From the UHGV virus genome UHGV-0197628: a stretch of 14,528 bases of DNA; one strand, given 5' to 3'. Below are positions 1-14,528 of the stretch, piece after piece. The translations under genes were made by a program, and so were the position numbers. The notes under the pieces are model-generated. The model was not told the DNA's origin. It did no database searches and was given only the letters and a program-made list of their open reading frames with translations. Numbering within the stretch: the first letter of the stretch is position 1; each line of letters opens with the position of its first letter. This stretch comes from a virus.

Positions 1-1
1 G

Positions 2-946
2 GGTATCACCACGCTTCAGCCGCGCATTAAAAACGGTTCAAAAGTGGAGGTGCTGATTGGTGATGAGCTGGTGATCACCGGCTGGGTGGAGGCTACGCCC
101 GTTCGTTACGATGCCCGGTCGGTCAGCACCGGTATTGCCGGACGCAGTCTAACCGCTGACCTGATTGATTGTGCAGCCGAACCGACACAGTTTAACGGAC
201 GATCACTGGTACAGATTGCGCAGGCGCTTGCTGCGCCCTTCGGCATTGAGGTGGTGAACAGCGGTGCGCCGTCGGGTGTTATTCCTGATGTCCAGCCTGA
301 TCACGGTGAAACGGTGATCGAGGTGATTAACAAAATACTCGGTCAGCAGCAGGCGCTGGCTTATGACGACCCGCACGGCAGGCTGGTGATTGGCGGTATT
401 GGCTCAACGCGGGCACATACCGCGCTGGTACTCGGGGAAAACATCCTTTCCTGCGATACGGAGAAGAGTATCCGGGAGCGGTTTTCTGTTTACCAGGTGG
501 CGGGGCAGCGTGCCGGAAACGACGATGATTTCGGTGAGGCCACCACCACCGCGCTGCGGGCCCGCACAGAGGACGCATTTATTGCCCGTTACCGTCCGAT
601 GTATATCAGGCAGACAGGGCAGGCCACGGGGGCAGGCTGTATTGCGCGTGCTGACTTTGAAGCCCGGCAACGGGCGGCGCGGACGGATGAAACCATCTAT
701 GTGGTGCAGGGCTGGCGACAGGGTAACGGTACGCTGTGGCAGCCCAACCAGCGGGTGATTGTCTTTGATCCGGTCTGTGGTTTCGACAATACCGAACTGC
801 TTGTATCGGAAGTCACGTTTACTCAGGGCCAGAACGGTACCCTGACGGAAATCCGTGTCGGCCCGCCTGATGCTTATCTGCCTGAACCCGAAGATCCCGG
901 CGCGCGGAAAAAGAAAAAAGCCAGAGTACAGGAGGACCCGTTCTGA
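2..946 (+). CDS. Phage baseplate/tail protein, Mu gp44 (P) / late-control-D-like; 5' end lies outside the window
   Basis: Reading frame is open from nt 2 (no in-frame stop before the first Met at 44) to the TGA at 944-946, so the gene starts upstream of the window. Its stop overlaps the next start (TGATG at 944-948), indicating translational coupling. It sits first in a co-oriented gp44-gp45-gp46-gp47-gp48-like series. Family assignment rests on gene order and size, not a search. Confidence 0.55.
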   Translation, partial: GITTLQPRIKNGSKVEVLIGDELVITGWVEATPVRYDARSVSTGIAGRSLTADLIDCAAEPTQFNGRSLVQIAQALAAPFGIEVVNSGAPSGVIPDVQPDHGETVIEVINKILGQQQALAYDDPHGRLVIGGIGSTRAHTALVLGENILSCDTEKSIRERFSVYQVAGQRAGNDDDFGEATTTALRARTEDAFIARYRPMYIRQTGQATGAGCIARADFEARQRAARTDETIYVVQGWRQGNGTLWQPNQRVIVFDPVCGFDNTELLVSEVTFTQGQNGTLTEIRVGPPDAYLPEPEDPGARKKKKARVQEDPF

Positions 947-1494
947 TGAGGGCGATTGAAACCATACAGCGACAACTCCTCGGGCTGATTGGGCGGGCCG
1001 TGGTGAAAAGCATCAGTGCCGCCACGAAATGTCAGACCGTGGATGTGTCCCTGATTGCCGGTGAACCCAAAGCCGGGGTTGAACATCTTGAACCTTACGG
1101 TTTTACCGCAAGGGCAAACAGCGGTGCGGAAGCGGTGGTGTTGTTTCCGGATGGTGACCGTTCTCATGCGGTGGTTGTTACGGTGTCGGACCGGCGTTAC
1201 CGCCTGAAAGGGCTGCAGACGGGTGAGGTGGCTGTCTATGACGATCAGGGGCAGTCCGTGACGCTGACCCGGGAGGGGATCGTGGTGGACGGTGCAGGTA
1301 AAACGATCACGTTTCGCAATGCACCTGAAGCACGTTTTGAAATGGATCTGGAAGTGACCGGACAGGTGAAAGACCTGTGCGACTCCGGCGGCACCACCAT
1401 GTCAGCGATGCGGCTTGCCTATAACGGGCATCGTCACAGAGAGAACGGTCAGGGCAGTAACACCGATAAACCTGATAAAGCGATGGAGGCATGA
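946..1494 (+). CDS. Baseplate spike/assembly protein V-like (Mu gp45-like)
   Basis: 182-aa ORF, ATG at 946 overlapping the upstream stop, and its own stop overlapping the next start (ATGATG at 1491-1496). Size and position match the gpV/gp45 slot of Mu-like tail modules. Confidence 0.65.
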   Translation: MRAIETIQRQLLGLIGRAVVKSISAATKCQTVDVSLIAGEPKAGVEHLEPYGFTARANSGAEAVVLFPDGDRSHAVVVTVSDRRYRLKGLQTGEVAVYDDQGQSVTLTREGIVVDGAGKTITFRNAPEARFEMDLEVTGQVKDLCDSGGTTMSAMRLAYNGHRHRENGQGSNTDKPDKAMEA

Positions 1495-1919
1495 TGGAAC
1501 TGTGGCTGACGGTGAACGGTAAACGCACCTGCGCCAGCGCACCGCTGGATCCGCTGACCCGCGCTGTGGTGATTTCCCTGTTCACCTGGCGGCGGGCGGA
1601 GCCTGATGACTATGCCGACGTCCCAATGGGATGGTGGGGGGATACCTGGCCTGCGGTACAGAATGACCGTTACGGCTCCCGACTGTGGCTGCTTCAGCGC
1701 AGCAAACTGACCAATCAGCTGGTGCAGACGGTAAGGGGATATATCCGCGAATGCCTGCAATGGATGATTGATGACGGCGTGGTGTCCCGTATTGATCTGG
1801 ATATCCGCCGCACCGGGATTAATGAGCTGGGTAACAGTATCATCCTCTGGCGTCGTGATGGACCAGTAGTGATTTCTTTTGATGATCTGTGGAGTGCGAT
1901 AACGCATGGCGGACAGTGA
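1491..1919 (+). CDS. Mu gp46-like baseplate protein (gp25/W-like)
   Basis: 142-aa ORF with 4-nt start/stop overlap to the upstream gene and 14-nt overlap with the downstream gene. Size matches Mu gp46 (~140 aa) and it is in the conserved position. Confidence 0.6.
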   Translation: MMELWLTVNGKRTCASAPLDPLTRAVVISLFTWRRAEPDDYADVPMGWWGDTWPAVQNDRYGSRLWLLQRSKLTNQLVQTVRGYIRECLQWMIDDGVVSRIDLDIRRTGINELGNSIILWRRDGPVVISFDDLWSAITHGGQ

Positions 1920-2964
1920 ATTTCAGCGCCCGACGCTGGCAGAAAATATCAGTATGCTCCGTAACGATTTATTCGCCAGGCTGGACGTCAGCGACACGCT
2001 CCGGCGCATGGATGAAGACGTGCGGGCAAAGGTGTATGCGGCGGCGCTGCATACGGTCTACGGTTACATCGATTATCTGGCAATGAATATGCTGCCTGAC
2101 CTGTGCGATGAGTCCTGGCTGGCGCGACATGCTGCGATGAAACGGTGTCCGCGCAAGGGAGCCACGGTTGCCAGCGGGTATATGCGCTGGGAAGGTGTCA
2201 GCGATGGCCTGAAGGTGACTGCCGGGAGTGTTATTCAGCGCAATGACTTGGTGCAGTACACGACAACTGACGATGCAATCAGCTCCGGTGGTGTCCTGCG
2301 TGTGCCGATCGCCTGCTCAAGTGCAGGTGCGGTTGGTAACGCTGACGACGGTACGGCATTAATCCTGGTCACGCCGGTGAATGGTCTGCCGTCTTCCGGC
2401 GTGGCTGACACCCTGACAGGCGGATTTGATACTGAAGAGCTGGAAACGTGGCGCGCCCGCGTCATTGAGCGGTATTACTGGACGCCGCAGGGCGGGGCTG
2501 ACGGGGACTATGTCGTCTGGGCTAAAGAAGTACCTGGCATTACCCGCGCATGGACATACCGACACTGGATGGGAACGGGGACTGTCGGTGTGATGATTGC
2601 CAGCAGTGACCTGATTAATCCCATTCCGGAAGAATCAACGGAAACGGCAGCAAGACAACATATCGGGCCACTGGCCCCGGTGGCAGGCTCTGATTTGTAT
2701 GTATTCAGGCCGGTGGCACATACGGTGGATTTTCATATCCGCGTGACGCCGGACACACCAGAAATACGGGCTGCCATCACCGCCGAGTTGCGTTCGTTCC
2801 TGCTGCGTGATGGTTATCCGCAGGGAGAACTGAAGGTATCGCGTATCAGTGAGGCGATTTCCGGTGCGAACGGGGAATACAGCCATCAATTGCTTGCACC
2901 GGCGGACAATATCTCCATTGCAAAAAATGAACTGGCGGTTCTGGGGACGATTTCATGGACGTGA
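1906..2964 (+). CDS. Baseplate J-like protein (Mu gp47 / P2 gpJ family)
   Basis: 352-aa ORF in the conserved position between the gp46-like and gp48-like genes, overlapping the downstream gene by 10 nt. Size is typical of baseplate J proteins. Confidence 0.7.
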
Positions 2965-3539
2965 CAAACGATGATTACATCCGTCTGTTGTCGGCACTGC
3001 TGCCGCCCGGTCCGGCGTGGTCAGCCAGCGATCCGGCGATTGCCGGTGCGGCACCGTCATTAACTCGTGTTCATCAGCGTGCGGATGCCCTGATGCGGGA
3101 GCTGGATCCGCGCACCACCACCGAACTGATAAATCGCTGGGAGCGTCTGTGCGGCCTGCCGGATGAATGTATTCCCGCAGGGACACAGACCCTTCGCCAG
3201 CGTCAGCAACGGCTGGATGCGAAGGTTAACCTGGCGGGTGGCATCAACGAGGATTTTTATCTTGCACAGCTTGCTGCCCTGGGCAGACCAGATGCCGCCA
3301 TCACGCGATACGACAAAAGCACGTTCACCTGCTCATCGGCCTGTACTGACGCTGTGAATGCGCCGGAATGGCGGTATTACTGGCAGGTCAACATGCCAGC
3401 CGCCACCAACACCACCTGGATGACATGTGGCGATCCCTGTGATTCCGCACTGCGTATCTGGGGGGACACCGTTGTCGAGTGCGTGCTTAACAAACTCTGC
3501 CCGTCGCATACCTACGTAATTTTTAAATATCCGGAGTAA
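2955..3539 (+). CDS. Mu gp48-like tail protein (P2 gpI-like / YmfQ-like)
   Basis: 194-aa ORF immediately upstream of the tail-fibre gene, with a 3-nt gap to it. Size and position match Mu gp48 and e14 YmfQ. Confidence 0.6.
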
Positions 3540-3542
3540 TCC

Positions 3543-4208
3543 ATGCATCGTATAGACACGAAAACCGCGCAGAAGGATAAGTTCGGCGCGGGTAAGAACG
3601 GTTTTACCCGTGGTAACCCCCAGACCGGCACGCCTGCCACCGATCTGGATGATGACTACTTTGATATGTTGCAGGAAGAACTCTGCAGCGTGGTGGAGGC
3701 ATCCGGTGCCAGTCTGGAGAAGGCGCGGCACGACCAGCTGCTTACCGCGCTTCGTGCGCTGCTGTTAAGCCGCAAGAATCCGTTTGGCGATATCAAATCG
3801 GATGGCACGGTGAAAACGGCTCTCGAAAACCTTGGTTTGGGAGAAGCGGCAAAACGGGATGTGGGTAACGGGCAAAACCAAATTCCTGATATGTCAGCGT
3901 GGGAGTGTGGGGGAGATACAACGACGGGATGGAGGCGAAGCCCGGATGGTTATATTGAACAATGGGGGCTAACTGGGGCCACAACAAATGAAGTTTTGAT
4001 TAATTTTCCTATCCCATTTCCGACAGCCGTCATTTCTATTAATGAACATGACCAGGCTCCTGTGGCAGGGAAAATGTCAGTATGGCAATTCTATAAATTG
4101 ACTAACTCAAATGTCATAGCAGAGAACCTGGGATCTCTTGATAAAGGAAATCCATCCTTCAATGTTCCAACTGTCGCTGGTTGCCGCTGGTTTGCTACAG
4201 GAAGATAA
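3543..4208 (+). CDS. Side tail fibre protein (Stf / Mu S-like); constant N-terminus (to ~nt 3833) fused to the currently expressed variable C-terminus inside the invertible segment
   Basis: 221-aa ORF. The N-terminus ([26 protein letters not shown]...) is, from memory, characteristic of e14 StfP-type fibre proteins. The 26-bp inversion crossover site lies in the ALENLGLGE codons (nt 3820-3845). Sequence downstream of the site is visibly more AT-rich and unrelated to the constant part. Confidence 0.8.
3820..3845. repeat. Left inversion crossover site (gix/pix/hix-like, 26 bp, central TT)
   Basis: ctctcgaaaaccTTggtttgggagaa resembles the Hin/Gin crossover-site pattern (..GAAAACC NN GGTTT..). 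Its reverse complement matches the right site at 5659-5684 over 15 contiguous bp (cttctcccaaaccaa), with partial similarity beyond. Confidence 0.75.
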
Positions 4209-4209
4209 A

Positions 4210-4650
4210 ATGAGTAAATATCTTTACGATGCTAAAACTAATATGTTTTACCCATTTACTCTGGAAAGTCAGTATAAGGAGTCTGGGTTATGGCCTCATA
4301 ATGGAGTTGAAGTTGATGAGGATATATTTATTAAGTACCTGTCCCCACCTCCAGGGAAGGTGAGAGTTGCGGGTGATGATGGCTATCCTGCATGGGATGA
4401 CGTACCGCCGCTAACTCATGAAGAACAACTGTCAGAAGCGGAACGAAAAAAACAGGCACTCATAAATCGAGTTAATGAATATATTAACAGTAAGCAGTGG
4501 CCAGGAAAGGCTGCTATTGGTCGTCTGAAAGGTGAGGAACTGGCGCAATATAATTTATGGCTGGATTATCTGGACGCACTGGAACTGGTCGATACTTCCA
4601 GTGCTCCAGATATTGAATGGCCTACGCCTCCGGCAGTTCAGGCCAGATGA
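4210..4650 (+). CDS. Tail fibre assembly chaperone (Tfa / Mu U-like)
   Basis: ATG at 4210 lies 1 nt after the stf stop (TAA 4206-4208), with an AGGAAG Shine-Dalgarno-like sequence about 8 nt upstream. C-terminus ...GRLKGEELAQYNLWLDYLDALELVDTSSAPDIEWPTPP is the conserved Tfa tail. The longer ORF from 4138 starts inside stf and was not used. Confidence 0.75.
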   Translation: MSKYLYDAKTNMFYPFTLESQYKESGLWPHNGVEVDEDIFIKYLSPPPGKVRVAGDDGYPAWDDVPPLTHEEQLSEAERKKQALINRVNEYINSKQWPGKAAIGRLKGEELAQYNLWLDYLDALELVDTSSAPDIEWPTPPAVQAR

Positions 4651-5215
4651 CATCCGGCGCGGTGCTGGTATCTGTTGCCGCCACCGCGTCAATGTAATCC
4701 AGCACAGCGTTAAGCCGGGTTGTTTCTGCCTGCGTCAGTTTCCGCCCGGCCTGTAATTTCAGCTGAATCAGACTAATGGAAGCCATTGCTGCATCAATCA
4801 GTGACTGGCGCTGTGCTTCTGCCGCTTCTACTGCGGCACCGTGTTGTGCCTCAGTATCTGTCACCCATTTCTCACCATCCCATTTATCATATGGCGTTAA
4901 CGGTGAAAGCGTGACATAACCGTTTTTGATGGCACCGATATAATCCACTGTAACAGCAGCACCATTTTCGATTGAGTAAACAGTCTCATTGCGATGGTCT
5001 TCTTCATGGCACCATCCCTTACCTGTAAATACTGCCACTTTTCCCGGAATGTTTTCGCCCGGGTCAATACCAGTGGAACAGGCGGGCATACTTACGCCAG
5101 TATTAATATATTCATCAGACCAGCCCGTATACTCAGATGTTTCAGCATCATAATAAAAACAACGCATATCGCCCGGCACTGTAGCCAGCCCATTTTCATC
5201 AAAAACAGGTTTCAT
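4622..5215 (-). CDS. Tail fibre assembly chaperone, alternative copy (Tfa' / Mu U'-like)
   Basis: 197-aa minus-strand ORF ending in the same conserved Tfa C-terminal motif (...LDYIDAVAATDTSTAPDVIWPELPEA). It is convergent with tfa, with the 3' ends overlapping by 29 nt, and sits immediately downstream (minus-strand sense) of the alternative fibre cassette. Confidence 0.8.
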   Translation of the reverse strand: MKPVFDENGLATVPGDMRCFYYDAETSEYTGWSDEYINTGVSMPACSTGIDPGENIPGKVAVFTGKGWCHEEDHRNETVYSIENGAAVTVDYIGAIKNGYVTLSPLTPYDKWDGEKWVTDTEAQHGAAVEAAEAQRQSLIDAAMASISLIQLKLQAGRKLTQAETTRLNAVLDYIDAVAATDTSTAPDVIWPELPEA

Positions 5216-5682
5216 TATTTAGCCCTCACCAGAAAGTTAAATGCAATATTTCGCGGTCTGACAGCAACAAAATTCACACCATCACCCACAGAGCTACTGG
5301 TGAAATTAAATCGTGAAAATCCTGGCTGATTTCCGGCGATGCCATCATGAAAGTTAATTGCGTGTCCCGCACCTTCGCCTATATTCCCGGCAAACTGAGA
5401 AAAGTTTGTAGCTTCCTGCCAGCTTAATAATTCGCGACCACCATCTGCACCTCGCCCGTCATCCCAGATACGAATGAAATCACCGCGGGCTTCAGGTAAT
5501 ACCAGCGAAGGAAACACTTTCGCCAGCACAGGGTAATTAGAGGCAGAAAATTTCGCCCCGTTGAACTTCAAAAACACCATACCGGACCAGCTGTCGATTA
5601 CAGTATTTGGCATTGCCGCGGAGGGCCAGAAGAACGGAACGCCAATAGCTGGAGCACCTTCTCCCAAACCAACATTTATGAA
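5215..5682 (-). CDS. Alternative tail-fibre variable C-terminal cassette (S'-like), silent in this orientation
   Basis: Minus-strand frame is open from the right crossover site and encodes ...NVGLGEGAPAIG..., i.e. the same L-G-L-G-E junction residues as the expressed fibre. It has no credible start or RBS of its own; the track's Met at 5712 lies in the pin upstream region. Its stop abuts the tfa' start. Confidence 0.7.
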   Translation of the reverse strand, partial: FINVGLGEGAPAIGVPFFWPSAAMPNTVIDSWSGMVFLKFNGAKFSASNYPVLAKVFPSLVLPEARGDFIRIWDDGRGADGGRELLSWQEATNFSQFAGNIGEGAGHAINFHDGIAGNQPGFSRFNFTSSSVGDGVNFVAVRPRNIAFNFLVRAK

Positions 5683-5684
5683 AA
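5659..5684. repeat. Right inversion crossover site (26 bp, central AA; inverted relative to the left site)
   Basis: ttctcccaaaccAAcatttatgaaaa. The first 14 bp are the exact reverse complement of the inner half of the left site. It lies 55 bp upstream of the invertase start codon, as in Gin/Pin/Hin systems. Confidence 0.7.
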
Positions 5685-5738
5685 TGCAGAAATAACGAGC
5701 AAATGGCATCATTCCTGCTTTTGCTAGGGAGATCTACC

Positions 5739-6293
5739 ATGCTTATTGGCTATGTACGTGTGTCAACAAATGACCAGAACACAGATCTACAACGTAATGC
5801 GCTGAACTGTGCAGGATGCGAGCTGATTTTTGAAGACAAGATAAGCGGTACAAAGTCCGAAAGGCCGGGACTGAAAAAACTGCTCAGGACATTATCGGCA
5901 GGTGACACTCTGGTTGTCTGGAAGCTGGATCGGCTGGGGCGCAGTATGCGGCATCTGGTCATTCTGGTTGAGGAGTTGCGCGAACGTGGCGTTAATTTTC
6001 GCAGCCTGACGGATGCTATTGATACCAGTACCCCAATGGGGCGCTTTTTCTTTCATGTGATGGGGGCCCTGGCTGAAATGGAACGAGAACTGATTGTTGA
6101 ACGAACAAAAGCTGGACTGGAAGCTGCTCGCGCACAGGGACGAATTGGTGGACGTCGTCCCAAACTTACACAAGAACAATGGGCGCAGGCCGGGCGATTA
6201 ATTGCATCAGGCGTTCCTCGCCAGAAGGTGGCGATCATCTATGATGTTGGTATATCGACACTGTATAAGAAGTTTCCGGTCGGAGATAAATGA
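5739..6293 (+). CDS. pin: Serine DNA invertase, Pin/Gin/Hin/Cin family
   Basis: 184-aa product from ATG 5739 (MLIGYVRVSTNDQNTDLQRNALN...). It has the N-terminal catalytic-serine motif (YVRVSTNDQ) and a C-terminal helix-turn-helix region (...GRRPKLT..QKVAIIYDVGISTLYKKF), and is near-identical in character to E. coli PinE as I recall it. The 12 extra N-terminal codons in the ORF track (from 5703) were rejected. Confidence 0.9.
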   Translation: MLIGYVRVSTNDQNTDLQRNALNCAGCELIFEDKISGTKSERPGLKKLLRTLSAGDTLVVWKLDRLGRSMRHLVILVEELRERGVNFRSLTDAIDTSTPMGRFFFHVMGALAEMERELIVERTKAGLEAARAQGRIGGRRPKLTQEQWAQAGRLIASGVPRQKVAIIYDVGISTLYKKFPVGDK

Positions 6294-6334
6294 AACCGTA
6301 GCACGTCGTATGCAAGAAGATCGTGCTGCGGTTT
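6293..6334. terminator. Bidirectional terminator-like hairpin between convergent pin and the GIY-YIG gene (repeat copy A)
   Basis: 13-bp stem (aaaccgtagcacg / cgtgctgcggttt, one G-U pair) with a 16-nt loop. It starts at the last base of the pin stop codon and ends 20 nt beyond the stop of the minus-strand gene. Flanks are moderately T-rich on both strands. Confidence 0.55.
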
Positions 6335-6353
6335 ATGCTTATCACTTAAAGAC

Positions 6354-7223
<870 letters not shown>

Positions 7224-7312
7224 CTAATCCTTTGAATTTACATAGTAAAAAAAGATACTTTTCCTCATAGTGTGAGCTAATTTTATGTTTCGTTTGATGA
7301 TCGGACCGGTCT

Positions 7313-7352
7313 CAAAAACCGCAGGCACGTTGTATGCAAGAACGTGCTGTGG
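7313..7352 (-). terminator. Rho-independent terminator-like hairpin on the minus strand (repeat copy B), downstream of the FRG-motif gene
   Basis: Stem ccgcaggcacg / cgtgctgtgg (about 10 bp with one bulge) and loop ttgtatgcaagaa. On the minus strand it is followed by a UUUUUG run (plus-strand aaaaa at 7314-7318). Stem and loop are closely related to hairpin A (shared gtatgcaagaa loop). Confidence 0.5.
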
Positions 7353-7658
7353 CTGGCTGGTGAACTTCCAATAGTGCGAATATTGAATTATTTCCAGCTG
7401 TTATCGATTTTACGTATTTTTTGCATGAGAGGATTTCCACCACCTCCCACCGACCATCTATGGCTGTACGGCCCTATCTCTAGGGCTGCTATGTGCTAAA
7501 AGCAGACATTGATAACATTGAGATATGTTAATTTATAGGTAGCGGGTCAAGGCCACTGAAGATTCCAGTTTTTGACCCTGAGCCTGAAACCGTCCCCGAT
7601 GAGCAGTTCCACCTGAAGACTGCACAGTCTTAGTTTTCTTTGCCATTAATTTATCCAT

Positions 7659-8993
7659 TTATGATATCGATATATACTTTTTTGCAATTTCCGCTGCCGT
7701 TTTCTCCATGCTGGGATATACAGTGCTTTCGGAGATATTAAGCTGGGCCAGCTCTTTCAGAATTTTATTTTTGTTTGCTATCTCCACTCTGTTAAGAGGA
7801 AAATCAGCATCTGTTTCCGGTAAAATAGGATCAAGTCCGAACAGAAGAAATGCGCCTGCCTGAGACTGTATGCGTTCATTATTTATTTTAGCTTTAAGGA
7901 AAACAACTTTTTTTAAGTCATCAGAGATTATTTTGTTTCTGAAATATGATTTTTCATTCTGTATAAGGTCTGCAAGTTTATCAGTGAGTTCAGATAGCTC
8001 TACAGTATCTTTTCTGACATCAATGGAAGACAATTTTTCCAGCTCTTCGTAAGATAAAACTGATAAGTTTGCTATGCAGCTTACTGTATCTGAATCAAAA
8101 TATTTAATTTTCTTTCTGTTTGTTGAGAACGAAATCACCTGCCCATTTTCATTATGGTTCGAACTGCAAGCAAAATATAATGCTATCAGTGGGTTAGATG
8201 TGATATCCAGGAGTCTCGTAGGTAAGCCATAATGCTGCATGCGGACAAGTTTATCAATCGTAAATTTATCCTCCTTAAATTCATTTGGTCTTGCACTGAG
8301 TATCTCACGTACTAAGTCAGATTCTGAAGCAAGATGCCTGTATGTCCCGTTTTCATTCTTTCTGTAAAGAGAGGGGACAAGCTCATATGAGCTTTTAGAG
8401 TGTCCACGATAAAAGGTAACGAGGCCATCCGGACTGTTTTTTTTAATAAAGGCAAGATAATCCATGACATTCTCAACCACCTGATATGTTTGTTTTTTTA
8501 ATTTGATTGTACCTTTCAGACGGTTGTTTTTCTTGTTTAAACTAAGTCCTTTCAGAACAATATTTAAATCCTTATCTTTTACTGCCCAGTGTGTACGACT
8601 TAACCCGAAAGTTCCTAGTTCTAGGATTTCTTTATATAATGCTGTTTGGGGATTTGTTATTTCTCCAAAATCATGGTTAATCTTGAAGGAAAATAAAATG
8701 TCGTCACCATCTTTACGTAAATTTCTTATTTTCCCAAGCCTGATTCTGATGTACCTGTTTTTATCATTTTCAGTATCTTTCATATAAGTTTCGGTCATGA
8801 ACAACACAGGTAGCATGGCGAGTAATTTTAAGCTATCGGGTCTTACAGGTATTAATTTACTGTAAATATCGCTTGGGGTGCCTTCCAGCATGCGGGACAT
8901 CGAGAAGCTTTCCTCGCCTTCTTTAAGCCCAGGATTCATACACGGCCAGCGGTCAAAAACGTCCGGTTCTCCGGCCATGATTAAGTTAAACAT
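7659..8993 (-). CDS. FRG-motif protein (Abi-like), uncharacterised N-terminal ~170 aa plus central FRG-type domain (candidate defence gene)
   Basis: 444-aa product from ATG 8991-8993, with AGGAG 6 nt upstream on the minus strand; the track's start is the adjacent GTG. Contains F-Y-R-G-H followed by ...RMQHYGLPTRLLDITSNPLIALYFAC, which I recognise as the FRG-domain signature. The gene is AT-rich. Confidence 0.7.
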   Translation of the reverse strand: MFNLIMAGEPDVFDRWPCMNPGLKEGEESFSMSRMLEGTPSDIYSKLIPVRPDSLKLLAMLPVLFMTETYMKDTENDKNRYIRIRLGKIRNLRKDGDDILFSFKINHDFGEITNPQTALYKEILELGTFGLSRTHWAVKDKDLNIVLKGLSLNKKNNRLKGTIKLKKQTYQVVENVMDYLAFIKKNSPDGLVTFYRGHSKSSYELVPSLYRKNENGTYRHLASESDLVREILSARPNEFKEDKFTIDKLVRMQHYGLPTRLLDITSNPLIALYFACSSNHNENGQVISFSTNRKKIKYFDSDTVSCIANLSVLSYEELEKLSSIDVRKDTVELSELTDKLADLIQNEKSYFRNKIISDDLKKVVFLKAKINNERIQSQAGAFLLFGLDPILPETDADFPLNRVEIANKNKILKELAQLNISESTVYPSMEKTAAEIAKKYISIS

Positions 8994-9505
8994 CACAATC
9001 TCCTGAATTTACTCACTAAAGTCAGTGTGTTTTTATTATGTTGCATCATTGTGAATGAGGATGGCATGAGTTGTCCATGCTTGTTTGTCTTTCATAATTC
9101 ACAAAGTACATCAGCTTCTAATGTGTTTACGGTACGACCATGTGGGCGATGTCTTTCCATTCCTGAAAACTTCCTACTCAACCATGATGTATAAGCTGTA
9201 GTATGAAGTTTCTTGCCATCCAGTTAAGTAAATGTCTGCTCCTCGCTCACAACAGACATTCACTACAGTTGTGGCAGAAAGGTATGCATACTGGGTGGGG
9301 AAAGTGTGAAAGAAAGGAAGAATACTGCGCCGTTTGTCGTCGCGTTTATCTTCATTGGCTATGCAAGTCGTAATACAAGGTGGGACAAAACTGAGACACA
9401 TAAGGCCTCACAATGGCTTGCAAGGCTTTACATGTTTTGATGTGGTGGGACGTGTGAGCGCAGTGTTGATGGGGTAATGCTTTGAATTAGAAGCGGATTC
9501 TTATA

Positions 9506-9551
9506 ATTCGTAATGCGAAGGTCGTAGGTTCGACTCCTATTATCGGCACCA
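9506..9551 (+). tRNA. Partial tRNA-Thr(CGU) gene, 3' 46 nt only (anticodon loop to CCA); att-site direct-repeat remnant, not a functional tRNA
   Basis: attcgtaatgcgaaggtcgtaggttcgactcctattatcggcacca matches the 3' portion of enterobacterial tRNA-Thr(CGU) (thrW) as I recall it, including anticodon CGT, T-arm GGTTCGACTCC and the CCA end. The 30 nt upstream do not encode the 5' acceptor/D arm, so the tRNA is truncated. Confidence 0.75.
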
Positions 9552-9663
9552 TCTCAACTTCCTCAAACGTCCGTATTAGTCCTTAAATCTTCTGATTTAT
9601 AAGGTTTTTTCTTCTTTTAAGTCCATGGTAGTCCGTAACCATCCAGTAGAATCCGGTACTGAA

Positions 9664-9714
9664 TGTGTATAGGATTGTGTATATGTTCCTGTTCGGTCTG
9701 GATTCCTATACACA
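9664..9714 (+). promoter_or_regulatory. Perfect 11-bp inverted repeat (tgtgtatagga ...29 bp... tcctatacaca) spanning the integrase translation start
   Basis: The arms at 9664-9674 and 9704-9714 are exact reverse complements. The right arm ends at the A of the preferred int ATG (9714) and the left arm begins inside the alternative upstream ATG (9663). A partial third copy (ttgtgtatatg) lies at 9675-9685. Confidence 0.4.
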
Positions 9715-10901
9715 TGCCTTTAAACGATATGCAGATTCGCCGCGCTAAACCTGAAGCTAAAGCCTATACACTTGGAGATGGGCAAGGGCTGTCTTTGCTT
9801 ATAGAACCTAATGGAAGCAAGAGCTGGCGGTTCCGCTATCGTTTTGCCGGTAAACCAAAAATGATCTCGCTTGGTGTTTATCCAACAATAACACTTGCCG
9901 ATGCGCGTTCCCGTCGTGACGATGCCCGAAAACTGGTCGCGGAAGGAAAAAATCCGAGCGAGGTTAGAAAAGAGCAGAAAATTGCTTTGCAAACGGAGTC
10001 CGAGAGCGCGTTTGAAAAGATAGCCACAGAGTGGCACCAAATGAAGTCTGCTAAATGGTCGGAAGGATATGCCTCAGACATCATGGAAGCGTTTCAGAAC
10101 GATATTTTTCCTTACGTGGGTACAAGACCAATAGGCGAAATCAAACCGCTAGAACTGCTTAACGTGCTACGTAAAATTGAAAGGCGCGGTGCATTAGAAA
10201 AAATGCGCAAAGTTCGGCAGCGATGTTCAGAGGTTTTTCGCTACGCCATTGCTACAGGAAGGGCTGAGTTTAACCCAGCAGCGGATCTTTCTAGTGCCCT
10301 CGATGTACACCAATCAAATCACTTCCCGTTCCTAAAAGCTGATGAGATACCCGATTTTCTGCGCGCTTTGGATGGTTACACCGGAAGTCGGCTTGTCCTG
10401 ATTGCTACGAAATTACTGATGATTACTGGTGTAAGAACCATCGAATTACGTGCGGCATTATGGTCAGAATTTGATCTAGATAACGCTATTTGGGAAATTC
10501 CAGCAGAAAGGATGAAAATGCGTAGGGCACACCTTGTGCCACTATCTACTCAAGCGTTAGATTTACTCAGCGAAATCAAAATAATGACAGGGAACTATAG
10601 TTATGTTTTTCCGGGACGGAATGATCCGAACAAGCCGATGAGTGAAGCAAGTGTCAATCAGGTAATCAAACGCATTGGTTATAAAAGTAGGGTCACTGGG
10701 CATGGTTTTAGGCACATGATGTCAACTATCTTACATGAGCATGGGTTTGATTCCCGGTGGATAGAGTTACAGCTGGCTCATGTTGATAAAAATACCATTC
10801 GAGGTACTTATAATCATGCGGTCTATCGTCACGAGAGAGCTACTATGATGCAGTATTTTGCTGATTTGCTATTAGGAAAGTCTCATGACAATAATCAATG
10901 A
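9714..10901 (+). CDS. int: Tyrosine site-specific integrase, P4 / CP4-57 family
   Basis: 395-aa product (MPLNDMQIRRAKPEAKAYTLGDGQGLSLLIEPNGSKSWRFRYRF...). It has the N-terminal arm-binding region typical of P4-type integrases and C-terminal catalytic residues in context (...HLVPLS..., HGFRHMMSTILHEHG, LAHVD...RGTYNHAVY). It sits directly downstream of a tRNA 3' fragment. Confidence 0.9.
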   Translation: MPLNDMQIRRAKPEAKAYTLGDGQGLSLLIEPNGSKSWRFRYRFAGKPKMISLGVYPTITLADARSRRDDARKLVAEGKNPSEVRKEQKIALQTESESAFEKIATEWHQMKSAKWSEGYASDIMEAFQNDIFPYVGTRPIGEIKPLELLNVLRKIERRGALEKMRKVRQRCSEVFRYAIATGRAEFNPAADLSSALDVHQSNHFPFLKADEIPDFLRALDGYTGSRLVLIATKLLMITGVRTIELRAALWSEFDLDNAIWEIPAERMKMRRAHLVPLSTQALDLLSEIKIMTGNYSYVFPGRNDPNKPMSEASVNQVIKRIGYKSRVTGHGFRHMMSTILHEHGFDSRWIELQLAHVDKNTIRGTYNHAVYRHERATMMQYFADLLLGKSHDNNQ

Positions 10902-11811
10902 GGTGAATAAATTTGTATCTGTCAACAAGCAAGATTTTGATGCTTGTATTGATGTTGTTGAGCATTTCTTTTGTATCAAATCGCTCTGTGCAGAGGTACG
11001 ATTTCATCATTTGAAGTTTGATGGTAATGGACGACCTATGGTGAAGGCGTTAGCTGAAAAACTTTACGAGTATATAATCGAGTACTGTTTTTCGATGCAA
11101 GATAGATGTGAACCTCTCTCATCTCAACAATGGCTTGCCTTAGCGAAACAGGCTCGTTCATTGTTTAGGCATCCCAAAGTCACAGACGATTCGCCTGATA
11201 AAACAGGCGAGGCTGGCGAAACTTTATTATTTTTCCTTTTGGAAGCTATAATTGGTGCTCCACAGTTAGTGGCAAAAATGGAGCTTAAAACCAACTCGAA
11301 TGATGAGGTAAAAGGTTCTGACGGCATACATATAAAATGGAATGAAACGGATAAAGTTGTTGATTTCTACTTTGGTGAGTCAAAGCTCTATCAGAAAATA
11401 TCCTCTGCAATGGACTCAGCACTTAAAAGTATCGATGATTTCCATACTAATGAAATGTATAAGCATGAGTTTGGTATGGCAACAAAACATTATAAATACG
11501 CTAAGGATGAAGTCAGGGACGCTGTAAGGAAACTATTCGTTTCTGGAGAACCCGGTTCTGATGTTCGTGTTAATCATGCGTGTTTAATTGGTTTTGACTG
11601 GAATGGTTTTGACAAGTTAGATTATGGATCTTCGATTTCTATAAATGAGCAGTTTATTACAGAGTTGACTAACACACTTCCGCAATGGATTGGTCTGTTA
11701 GATGAAAAATTCAGTAGGTTTAACCGTAAATATTTAAGGTTTGATGTTTTCTTTATTCCATTTCCTTCGGTAGTCGATTTTAGAAATGAATTTAACAAGG
11801 CATTAAATTAA
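10885..11811 (+). CDS. PD-(D/E)xK-like nuclease candidate; HamA-like (Hachiman effector) by architecture
   Basis: 308-aa ORF with AGGAAAG 5 nt upstream of its ATG, overlapping the int 3' end by 17 nt. Candidate catalytic triad spacing: E120 (FLLEAIIG), D146 (GSDGIHI), E165-x-K167 (FYFGESKLY). It is followed 2 nt later by a large SF2 helicase gene. Strongly AT-rich. DUF1837 membership could not be verified without an HMM search. Confidence 0.6.
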   Translation: MTIINEVNKFVSVNKQDFDACIDVVEHFFCIKSLCAEVRFHHLKFDGNGRPMVKALAEKLYEYIIEYCFSMQDRCEPLSSQQWLALAKQARSLFRHPKVTDDSPDKTGEAGETLLFFLLEAIIGAPQLVAKMELKTNSNDEVKGSDGIHIKWNETDKVVDFYFGESKLYQKISSAMDSALKSIDDFHTNEMYKHEFGMATKHYKYAKDEVRDAVRKLFVSGEPGSDVRVNHACLIGFDWNGFDKLDYGSSISINEQFITELTNTLPQWIGLLDEKFSRFNRKYLRFDVFFIPFPSVVDFRNEFNKALN

Positions 11812-11813
11812 CT

Positions 11814-14345
11814 ATGTTAAAGATAAATGAGTTGTACTCTAAACTTGTCAAGGTTAGCATTGATAACATATTTGGAGTGGTAGGGGAGTTAAAGGTAAGT
11901 ATTAGTGATATTTATAAGTTATTATCATATGGCTCCATACTGTCTTTGTCAGAGAATGAATCTGACATAAAAAAAGCCTACGACATTGTCAGTAGAGTTT
12001 TAGAATTAGATACTCAGTACGATTCGAACATAATTGCAGCTTGTGATCTTATTTTATCTAGAATCGGAAATTTTCCAGGTAGAGGGTTGCTAAGAGATAA
12101 ATATAATAATGGAGAGTCTCCTTCGCTGAATTTATCACTTTCGCTAGAACGTATTGGGCGTGAAACAGAAAATACATACAATGATATAACTTTGACAAAC
12201 TTCCAATGCAAGTTGCTTAATTCGCTAAGAAAGAATAATTATCTCAGTGTGTCCGCCCCAACGTCTGCTGGAAAATCTTTTGTTCTTTCATTAGCTGTTA
12301 TTGATAAAATTCAAGCTTATGAAAAAGAATGCATTGTTTATGTAGTACCAACTCGTGCGTTAATTAGTGAGGTGTCAAATAAATTTCGTTATGAGTGTAA
12401 ACAAGCAGGGTTAAATAAAGTTATTATAAGAACTGCACCAGAAATAATAGAGAGTAATAGTATAGAACAAGGCTTAATTTATGTGCTCACACAAGAAAGG
12501 CTTGTTAGTTTACTCTCGAATTCTTATGGGAATAGCAATTTCCATATAGATACATTACTCATAGATGAAGCCCATGAAATCCAAAAAGGAAAAAGAGGTA
12601 TAATTCTTCAAAATGCTGTTGAATTAGCTCTTGAAAAACATCCTCATATGCATGTTATGTTTTCCAGCCCTTTGATAAGTAATCCTGATTATTTTTTTTC
12701 AATTTTTAGATGGCGCAAGGATGGTAAGTCATTTATTGAAACTATATCACCTGTTACACAGAATGTTTTACTTGTTAATCAAGTGAAAAATAACACTCAA
12801 GCTATTAACGTAAAGTTAAACAATGAAGATAAACCCATTGATCTTGGGAATTATAATTTAGATTTTGTGTTGCGGGGCAATCGTAAGGTTCAGAAAGCAA
12901 AAATTGCTGAGTTTATATCTCGCTCCGGTGGTGCTGTAATTGTATTTGAAGATACACCGTCTAATGCAGAAGGTGTTGCTATCAATATAGCGGAAAGTAT
13001 TGGTGATACATCTTTACAAGATGATTACGAAGAGTTTGTGTCTTCGATTGAAGAAGAAATGCATGAGCAATATACTTTGATCACATGCTTACGGTCAGGA
13101 GTGGCTTTTCATTATGGGAATATGCCATCTATAATAAGAAATGGGATTGAGTACTTCTTTAAACGTGGCGATATTAAGTTTATAGTTTGTACTAGTACAT
13201 TACTTCAGGGTGTTAACTTACCTGCAAAGCATCTTATTTTAGAGAATCCACACAGTGGTGATGAACCAATGTCAAGGGCTGATTTCTTGAACCTTGCTGG
13301 TAGAGCTGGCCGTTTGAAATATGAGTTTCATGGCAATGTTTGGTGTGTGAGAAGTAATCTTTGGGATAACAAGTCCTTTGAAGGTGATACTCTCCAAACT
13401 ATAACTTCCGCGATGTCAAAAGTTATGGAAGATGGCGGTAGCATCATTTCAAATGCTATTGATAATGTATTTTCCCCAACTGATGACAAGGAATTGGCAG
13501 ACGTTGCATTCGCGCGTTTTTATCAAGAAGTGCAAAGAGATGGTTTTCAATTATCATACTTCTCTGAGTTAGAGGGGGAGGAGTCCAATGAAATGTTGGA
13601 ATATAATTATGATAAAGTTCGACGAATGAAGATAACCATCCCTGAAGAACTGTTGAAATTGAACTCAGGCACGAGACCTGATTACATACAACGACTTTAT
13701 GAATTCTTCACCCAACAGGATGATTTAGATGATTACATTCTGCATAGCCCTTATCAACAAGGAGGGAAAGCAAGAGTAGACCGCGCCATCGAGATTATTA
13801 TTGATATATTCGCTTGGCCGGTTACATTGCAATATGCAAAGTTAATTAGTGTTATGGCTCATCATTGGATGACCTCTCACTCCCTTAAATCCATGATTAA
13901 CTATAAGATTAGAAGTTCTCATGAACTATCAGATATGATTAATCGTGGTGAATCAATTGGTAAAATAAGAAGAAAAACATCCTCTCTTATTAGGGATGTG
14001 CTAAATACACTTGAGAATCAAGTTAGGTATAATTTAGTTCGATATTTAAAAGTATATAGAGAAACTCTTGTCTATGTTCTTATTTCAAAAGGAGAAAAAG
14101 GTAAGGCTGAGAAGGTCGAGAATATTAGTGCCTATCTAGAGTTTGGTTCCTGTAATCCAACTGAATTAAGCCTTATGTCATTAGGCCTTTCTCGAAGTAC
14201 TGCTTTATTTTTAAAAAATAAATTTAATTTCCCGCGGGATTCCTCCCCTGAAGCGTTGATTGAATTTTTATTAACGAAAGATTTGAATTCTAAAAACACA
14301 CCAGAATTTAGAGTTAGAGAAATTAAAGATGTACTTGGAATTTAA
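11814..14345 (+). CDS. Superfamily-2 DEAH-box helicase with ~340-aa uncharacterised C-terminal region; HamB-like (Hachiman helicase) by architecture
   Basis: 843-aa ORF. Walker A is SAPTSAGKS (K154, nt ~12255-12278), motif II is LLIDEAHE (nt ~12561-12575), motif V-like is TSTLLQGVNLP and motif VI is LAGRAGRL (aa ~493-500). The start is 2 nt after the upstream stop. Strongly AT-rich. Confidence 0.7.
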   Translation: MLKINELYSKLVKVSIDNIFGVVGELKVSISDIYKLLSYGSILSLSENESDIKKAYDIVSRVLELDTQYDSNIIAACDLILSRIGNFPGRGLLRDKYNNGESPSLNLSLSLERIGRETENTYNDITLTNFQCKLLNSLRKNNYLSVSAPTSAGKSFVLSLAVIDKIQAYEKECIVYVVPTRALISEVSNKFRYECKQAGLNKVIIRTAPEIIESNSIEQGLIYVLTQERLVSLLSNSYGNSNFHIDTLLIDEAHEIQKGKRGIILQNAVELALEKHPHMHVMFSSPLISNPDYFFSIFRWRKDGKSFIETISPVTQNVLLVNQVKNNTQAINVKLNNEDKPIDLGNYNLDFVLRGNRKVQKAKIAEFISRSGGAVIVFEDTPSNAEGVAINIAESIGDTSLQDDYEEFVSSIEEEMHEQYTLITCLRSGVAFHYGNMPSIIRNGIEYFFKRGDIKFIVCTSTLLQGVNLPAKHLILENPHSGDEPMSRADFLNLAGRAGRLKYEFHGNVWCVRSNLWDNKSFEGDTLQTITSAMSKVMEDGGSIISNAIDNVFSPTDDKELADVAFARFYQEVQRDGFQLSYFSELEGEESNEMLEYNYDKVRRMKITIPEELLKLNSGTRPDYIQRLYEFFTQQDDLDDYILHSPYQQGGKARVDRAIEIIIDIFAWPVTLQYAKLISVMAHHWMTSHSLKSMINYKIRSSHELSDMINRGESIGKIRRKTSSLIRDVLNTLENQVRYNLVRYLKVYRETLVYVLISKGEKGKAEKVENISAYLEFGSCNPTELSLMSLGLSRSTALFLKNKFNFPRDSSPEALIEFLLTKDLNSKNTPEFRVREIKDVLGI

Positions 14346-14528
14346 TATTTTATCGCAATTATTTTGATGCCAATATAAATAATCATTCTCAATGGCGAAT
14401 TGCTAAAGGAAAGTTCATACGATGACCGCGCGCAATGCTCTCCCCGCCACGCCTGCCCGCTTTGTAGGGCAGTTTTCATGCAGGTGCATGAACCGGCTCA
14501 GGCCGCGCCGGTACTGGCGTGGTGGGGA

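Follow-up and report, generated by a model that had tools for sequence, protein, structure and literature searches.

A 46-nucleotide thrW fragment at the junction of an SfV-like prophage and a P4-like satellite with Hachiman genes

The stretch of DNA analysed here, hereafter called the window, comprises 14,528 nucleotides of the virus genome UHGV-0197628. Its plus strand opens with an SfV-like baseplate module (positions 1 to 3539), recognized by its identity to SfV and by matches to the Pfam Baseplate_J, Gp44-like and GpP domains; in this module a hub gene resembling Mu gpP/gp44 is cut at the window start and is followed by gp45-, gp46-, gp47- and gp48-like genes. Positions 1 to 3893 are 96.8% identical to SfV 13129-17021, and SfI, SfII and SfIV are similar (96-97% for SfV, SfI and SfIV); the stretch represents the Mu-like baseplate module of these serotype-converting phages, which are of the lambdoid type and integrate at thrW. 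Next come tail-fibre and tail-fibre-assembly genes (3543 to 5712; Gp53-like_C domain) with a Pin-invertible segment between two 20-nt inverted repeats (3827-3846 and 5658-5677), next to which lies the gene for a pin-type serine DNA invertase of 184 amino acids (5739 to 6293, plus strand; Resolvase and HTH_7 domains, pinE annotation in analogous genomes). The segment from 3832 to 5672 lies in the opposite orientation in the otherwise 100% identical contig L017, and also at L015, L016, L018 and L020; L019 has the orientation of the window. These inversions are consistent with an active Pin-driven host-range switch. An exact look-up of the tail-fibre protein returned matches only in other phage variants. 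A weak Rfam match to the Shigella sRNA CssrB at 6271-6330 (24.5 bits, the gathering score being 76; E 0.18) spans only the terminator-like hairpin that follows pin and is probably not meaningful.

Two morons, both on the minus strand, follow the invertase gene. The first encodes a GIY-YIG protein (6354 to 7127; Pfam LEM-3_GIY-YIG) that matches the PADLOC model for the PD-T4-3 defence protein over its full length (E 2.4e-140). The second, located beside the tRNA fragment described below, encodes an FRG-domain protein (7659 to 8993; Pfam FRG) and is a candidate defence gene of the PDC-S15 type (PADLOC E 1.2e-98). The identical FRG protein, in its 444-aa version, is carried by the same phage in many other contigs, L017 included; the 445-aa version of the reading frame, which starts at a GTG codon, had no record in the exact-protein look-up. 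Together, the PD-T4-3 and FRG genes occupy the slot that in SfV holds gtrV-gtrB-gtrA (gtrABC) in front of attP.

Across SfV-like prophages, the cargo of this slot, which extends from the tail-fibre/pin region to attR, is variable. The slot holds gtrABC in SfV (L003, 4859-7391), PD-T4-3 and FRG in the window (6354-8993), PD-T4-3 and an EcoRII-type restriction-modification system in L012 (12830-16681), an IS element with Abi_2 in L013 (10746-13587), HNH, AAA ATPase and FRG genes in strain 14EC007, and GIY-YIG and AraC genes in O157 genomes; positions 8207-11840 of L002 were also taken into this comparison.

To the right of the FRG gene, positions 9506 to 9551 (plus strand) read ATTCGTAATGCGAAGGTCGTAGGTTCGACTCCTATTATCGGCACCA. 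All 46 bases match E. coli thrW, the tRNA-Thr(CGU) gene beside proA, at tRNA positions 31-76, and the match terminates in CCA. The reference for this alignment was the tRNA-Thr gene adjoining proA in E. coli O157:H7, whose anticodon is read as cgt by ARAGORN. The sequence directly upstream of the fragment (..gaagcggattcttata) shows no match to the thrW 5' half. ARAGORN, run on the whole window, reported no tRNA, so that the complete cloverleaf of a functional tRNA gene is lacking from it, and the window likewise contains no Rfam tRNA match at E<=1. These results bear out the sequence-only reading, which had described a 46-nt tRNA-Thr(CGU) 3' match ending in CCA with no 5' half upstream. A chance match was rejected as an explanation: even for a 22-nt subset of the fragment, zero matches were expected (200 shuffles). 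The window holds no further full or partial copy of the 46-nt sequence.

Downstream of the fragment, a stretch of 162 nucleotides (9552 to 9713, plus strand) leads to a gene for a P4-family tyrosine integrase (9714 to 10901, plus strand; Arm-DNA-bind_3, Phage_int_M and Phage_integrase domains). The distance from the fragment to the int ATG is about 112-163 nt, according to whether translation starts at 9663 or, more likely, at 9714; the 395-aa product is the one used by gene callers. Compared with P4 Int, the integrase shows 39% identity along its entire length (E 1e-99); to SfV Int it is unrelated. It is followed by hamA (10885 to 11811, plus strand), encoding the DUF1837 component of Hachiman (Pfam HamA E 6.9e-50; PADLOC HamA E 8e-135, full length), and by hamB (11814 to 14345, plus strand), encoding the Hachiman helicase (DEAD, Helicase_C and ResIII domains; PADLOC HamB E 1e-279, full length). 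Hence, by both Pfam and PADLOC, adjoining HamA and HamB genes of a Hachiman system are present.

What kind of element lies to the left of the fragment is indicated by its right end. The 125 nucleotides abutting the fragment (9381 to 9505, plus strand) correspond to the P arm of an SfV-type attP, the phage side of attR, as seen from a match to SfIV and from an alignment with the SfV attP: positions 9381-9552 are 98.8% identical to SfIV 23073-23244, through the core, and the SfV attP is identical to the window throughout the P arm and all 46 nt of the core and begins to diverge two bases past the CCA. The flank immediately to the left of the core, tttgaattagaagcggattcttata, is common to the SfV attP and to every attR that we examined. 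The att core common to SfI, SfII, SfV, SfX and P22 has been printed as a 46-base string identical to 9506-9551 (PMC3636060), and the same string is present in the SfV attP (L003, 7593-7638). In SfI, attP is located directly after the O-antigen genes and in front of int and xis (PMC3636060). The boundary of the 46-nt fragment coincides exactly with the end of the identity between the SfV-family attP and thrW. The junction thus combines a thrW-identical 46-bp core with a P arm directly to its left that is contiguous with the late and moron region, the arrangement of an SfV/P22-type attR, and the matching attL (intact thrW, P' arm and SfV-type int/xis) is present in the analogues 14EC007, O157 TR01 and 2017C-4109. 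Because of the 98.8% identity of the P arm and the published 46-base core string, we identify the fragment as the attR of an SfV-like prophage.

The suggestion that the fragment is an att-site direct repeat is therefore upheld by the SfV/SfIV attP arm and the published core. It had been proposed that a longer, unrelated conserved sequence around the 46 nt would speak against such a reading; the conserved sequence is indeed longer, but the additional part is the phage attP arm, which favours an att site. By contrast, the idea that the left element is a remnant of a Mu-like prophage did not hold. A Mu-like transposable prophage moves by transposition and has neither a tyrosine integrase nor an att core at its ends, whereas the right end of the left element is an SfV-type attR and int/xis adjoin thrW in analogous prophages; only the tail module is Mu-like, as the annotation of SfV shows. 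No sign that the phage is a remnant was found within the window. Judged by its sequence, the left element is a temperate SfV-like phage predicted to integrate at thrW through a tyrosine integrase of its own. The length of 46 nt is a property of the attP of this left-hand SfV-type phage and is not due to the P4-family integrase downstream.

Upstream of the P arm and partly overlapping it, about 210 nt (9233-9441) are 86% identical to a stretch to the left of int/att in phage 21. The related stretch is non-coding or hypothetical and also occurs in several lambda-like phages that integrate at other sites; in the window it overlaps a 75-aa reading frame on the minus strand (9174-9401) with no Pfam match. 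It may represent a shared module at the end of the b region.

The right-hand element begins at the base after the CCA. Within its int-proximal att arm (9552 to 9713), a tandem pair of 12-nt repeats (9661-9672 and 9673-9684) is accompanied by an inverted copy (9704-9715) lying over the int ATG; the tandem repeats are about 110 nt from the core, a layout equal to that of the annotated P4 attP arm repeats. The window itself therefore contains hallmarks of P4-like satellites: an integrase of the P4 family, a core equal to a tRNA 3' end and, beside int, arm-type repeats. The same arm sequence follows intact thrW in seven contigs (L004-L006 and L008-L011), in which the satellite sequence from 9552 onward directly succeeds the intact tRNA-Thr(CGU) gene; over 5 kb this right flank is 99.5-99.8% identical to the window, with an identical HamB. 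Past HamB, these seven contigs carry psu, ogr/delta, a sid-like gene, alpA, ash, a DUF5375 gene and the alpha primase gene, the L004 alpha primase being 84% identical to P4 alpha. The 100%-identical contig L017 ends just after HamB. Defence systems of P4 elements lie mostly between the integrase gene and psu-delta-sid, and P4-like elements, but not P2, have been found to carry Hachiman (PMC13586616); the HamA/HamB pair thus occupies a known int-psu defence hotspot of P4-like satellites. By analogy with these relatives, the right element is considered to be a P4-like satellite of about 11.4 kb, of which the window would hold the first 5 kb. The sequence-only reading had described a small islet of int plus nuclease and helicase genes; its recognition of a separate right-hand element stands, while the small islet gives way to the ~11.4 kb P4-like satellite with Hachiman seen in the relatives.

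The far end of the satellite was located in these relatives as well. It is marked by an imperfect thrW repeat of about 16-23 nt, TCCTATTATCG-CACCA(TCTCAA), which has a 1-nt deletion; it lies at 19091-19112 in L004 and L005 and at 32989-33005 in L025, and is followed in each case by the native chromosomal flank, which after TCCTATTATCG(G)CACCA reads ..gttaccccatatttaaatacaccacg. In L004 the repeat is 11.4 kb from the tRNA gene, equivalent to about 20.9 kb on the scale of the window and hence beyond its end. An ungapped scan for this right-end repeat found nothing, because of the 1-nt deletion; a gapped short-query BLAST search recovered it. The identical deletion is present in the right-end repeats of two P4-like satellites with different cargo (L004 and L025). 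From these sequences, it is suggested that the attP core of such satellites is imperfect and that the crossover takes place on its right side, so that thrW would be preserved. In two of the seven satellite-bearing contigs, the metagenome contigs L009 and L011 (5300-7740), the place of proBA ahead of the intact tRNA-Thr gene and the satellite is taken by EAL and PEMT genes together with an ecp-like fimbrial operon; this context suggests either another host species or a rearrangement of the locus.

To relate the two elements to each other, we compared the junction flanks at 20 loci. The phage attP, consisting of P arm, core and P' arm, is represented by SfV (L003), and the prophage attL, in which the P' arm follows intact thrW, by L001 and L014. 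The phage occurs alone at L015, L018, L019 and L022, where P arm and core are followed by the native flank (yagP/paoD), the same flank that succeeds the CP4-6 fragment in K-12. The satellite occurs alone, with its arm behind intact thrW, at L004-L006 and L008-L011. The tandem state, with P arm, core and satellite arm in succession, is found in the window and at L017, L001 and L002. In addition, the same phage is joined through P arm and core to the arms of other P4-like satellites at L016/L021 and at L020, the satellite of the latter carrying reverse-transcriptase cargo, and the same satellite lies behind a different phage at L007, where the fragment in front of its arm is only 19 nt long. Copies of the phage at L015-L022 are 99.9-100% identical to window positions 5658-9552. 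L017, from sample SAMN05826846, is 100% identical over 5658-14404, but its 25-kb scaffold stops short of both thrW and the right end of the satellite. Since each element is found without the other, the view of the fragment as the boundary of two independently acquired elements, placed in tandem at tRNA-Thr, was confirmed.

The same junctions were counted in 5,426 complete E. coli genomes, a match to at least 80% of a 201-nt probe being scored as positive. Of these genomes, 304 have the composite junction (among them O157:H7, with Sp1/Sp2), 502 have the phage attR joined to the native flank, and 120 have thrW followed by the satellite arm. In 14EC007 the order is proA-thrW-int-xis-early-head-tail-baseplate-pin-FRG-46 nt-P4-type int, with the intact thrW about 40 kb to the left of the fragment, and in O157-type genomes it is thrW, an Sp1-like remnant, the 46 nt, an Sp2-like satellite, a 16-nt repeat and the native flank. 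The expectation that the intact tRNA gene and a further repeat copy lie outside the window is thus matched in these analogous genomes, and the same would apply to the source of the window. For the window as a whole, megablast against the 5,426 complete genomes gave a best coverage of 56%, and an exact 50-mer from the spacer between FRG and attR had no matches in the collections of genomes, metagenomes and viral contigs.

Several other origins of the fragment were weighed against these data. It might be a direct repeat made by the downstream P4-family integrase, its 46 nt reflecting the att core of that enzyme; the int ATG, about 162 nt downstream of the fragment, fits this idea, as does the fact that P4-type elements carry a tRNA 3' end beside int (annotated as such for the P4 attP core). 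However, where the same satellite stands alone, its far-end repeat measures only about 16-23 nt, and in L007, where another phage precedes the satellite, this int has a fragment of no more than 19 nt in front of it; 46 nt as a P4-type core was rejected on these grounds. With the 46-nt boundary also coinciding with the end of SfV-family attP/thrW identity and with the published 46-base core (PMC3636060), we consider this origin very unlikely, and the attribution of the 46-nt extent to the P4-family integrase, implied by the sequence-only reading, has to be dropped.

A single composite element, with the phage and the int-Hachiman region moving together and the fragment a relic inside it that marks no boundary, is likewise a highly improbable interpretation. 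While the identical combination does recur in L017 and the composite junction is found in 304 complete E. coli genomes, near-identical halves occur apart from each other, the phage alone or with other satellites at L015-L022 and the satellite alone behind intact thrW at L004-L011, and the complete genomes include 502 with phage attR and native flank and 120 with thrW and satellite arm. This separate occurrence at near-identical sequence led us to reject the composite. IS elements are common at the thrW locus of relatives (IS1203, IS1, and an IS in L013), and a truncated tRNA pseudogene could have been formed by a deletion or rearrangement, for instance IS-mediated, of the 5' half of thrW. Yet the junction at 9505/9506 shows neither an IS end nor a scar; instead, the SfV-family attP arm abuts the fragment up to the core boundary, and the same junction is present in the phage attP (L003, 7593-7638) and in every attR examined. 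As the left junction is that of the phage attP, truncation by deletion was rejected, and we give it almost no credence.

We are thus highly confident that positions 9506-9551 constitute a recombination scar common to two mobile elements in tandem at the thrW hotspot, serving as the attR of an SfV-like phage and as the attL of a P4-like satellite. According to this model, the phage attP, with its 46-bp copy of the thrW 3' end, would have recombined at thrW by means of the phage's own SfV/P22-type tyrosine integrase. This event would have left intact thrW and int far to the left (about 40 kb in the closest analogue), with the P arm and the 46-nt core at the right. The satellite would start at the base after the CCA with its arm repeats, P4-family int and HamA/HamB, would continue with psu-delta-sid, alpA and the alpha primase gene, and would end, as in its relatives, about 11.4 kb from the fragment at the imperfect 16-23-nt thrW repeat, beyond which the native flank would resume. 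Two unrelated tyrosine integrases would accordingly use nested cores in the 3' end of thrW, 46 bp in the SfV/P22 case and, in the P4 case, the final ~17 nt together with a few bases beyond them. Because the last ~17 nt of the fragment would be the P4-type core as well, the junction would be phage attR and satellite attL at once, and each element could in principle excise separately through it. Given the intact arms and the intact int gene, both att sites are likely to be still functional.

Two orders of integration can be envisaged. Were the satellite the first to arrive, the phage would later have entered the regenerated thrW gene; were the phage the first, the satellite would have used the phage attR copy as its attB. 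Both orders yield exactly this structure. Experiments with Sp10 next to Rac have demonstrated such a use of an attR copy as attB (PMC2669165). In the O55:H7 strain DEC5A and the O157 strain 493/89, the satellite arm directly follows thrW, a state that hints at a satellite-first order in the O55:H7/O157:H7 lineage, with loss of the phage as the alternative.

Set against the phage-alone (502) and satellite-alone (120) states, the tandem state (304 genomes) is about five times as frequent as expected if the two elements were independent, a figure uncorrected for phylogeny, and this excess is probably due to heavy over-sampling of O157:H7. No copy other than the attR left by the phage retains the native flank downstream. 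A non-passive pairing of phage and satellite at thrW, whereby satellites prefer the phage attR copy, or exploit or guard SfV-like phages, is in our opinion improbable.

The closest parallels to this junction come from well-studied elements. The attR sites of the Shigella flexneri serotype-converting phages SfV, SfI, SfII, SfIV and SfX and of P22, at thrW beside proA, have the same 46-base core. The likeness of the left element to the SfV family extends to the P arm (98.8%, SfIV), the baseplate genes (96-97%; SfV, SfI and SfIV) and the order of tail, moron slot and attP/attR. Unlike in that family, the slot of the window has pin-adjacent PD-T4-3 and FRG genes in place of gtrABC, and the core is followed by the arm of a P4-like satellite and not by the native flank or a phage int gene. 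The array of E. coli O157:H7, whose Sp1 and Sp2 elements have been described for strain Sakai (PMC2669165), presents the same succession of proA, thrW, phage, 46-nt fragment, P4-family int, defence cargo, delta/psu/sid, alpha, short repeat and native flank, with a junction 92-96% identical to that of the window. It differs in that Sp1 is a heavily degraded lambdoid prophage and in that the P4-like Sp2 has an ABC-three-component system as its cargo, not Hachiman; its integrase region has only ~87% nucleotide identity to the window.

P4 itself resembles the right element in Int (39%, full length), in the alpha primase (84%, L004) and in the presence of psu, delta, DUF5375 and alpA in the same element (seven contigs), and in both att regions a tRNA 3'-end core is separated by about 110 nt from a tandem pair of 12-nt repeats, a further copy of which lies inverted over the int ATG. 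The arm repeats, however, are of the TGTGTATA type in the window satellite and of the TGGGGGCA type in P4, and the window satellite sits at thrW with Hachiman in its hotspot, whereas P4 targets leuX, its attP core lying in the 3' end of that gene. The cryptic prophage CP4-6 of K-12 (thrW ... intF - thrW 3' fragment - yagP) likewise has a thrW 3' fragment at its right end and the native flank ttaaaatcaaagagttaccccatattt, but differs in its island content and has intF, on the opposite strand, to the left of its fragment.

Earlier descriptions thus exist for the att core, for the thrW locus and its tandem architecture, and for the defence hotspot of the satellite, and the value of the junction lies mainly in annotation, including a corrected label for the supposed Mu-like remnant. 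The fragment fixes the exact boundaries of the elements, at 9505/9506 and at 9551/9552. The junction is also an example of how elements would be stacked at one tRNA gene by two integrases that are unrelated but whose cores are nested, a principle that has been documented before. With these boundaries in place, the three or four defence loci of the window (PD-T4-3, FRG/PDC-S15 and Hachiman) ride on two vehicles and not on one island.
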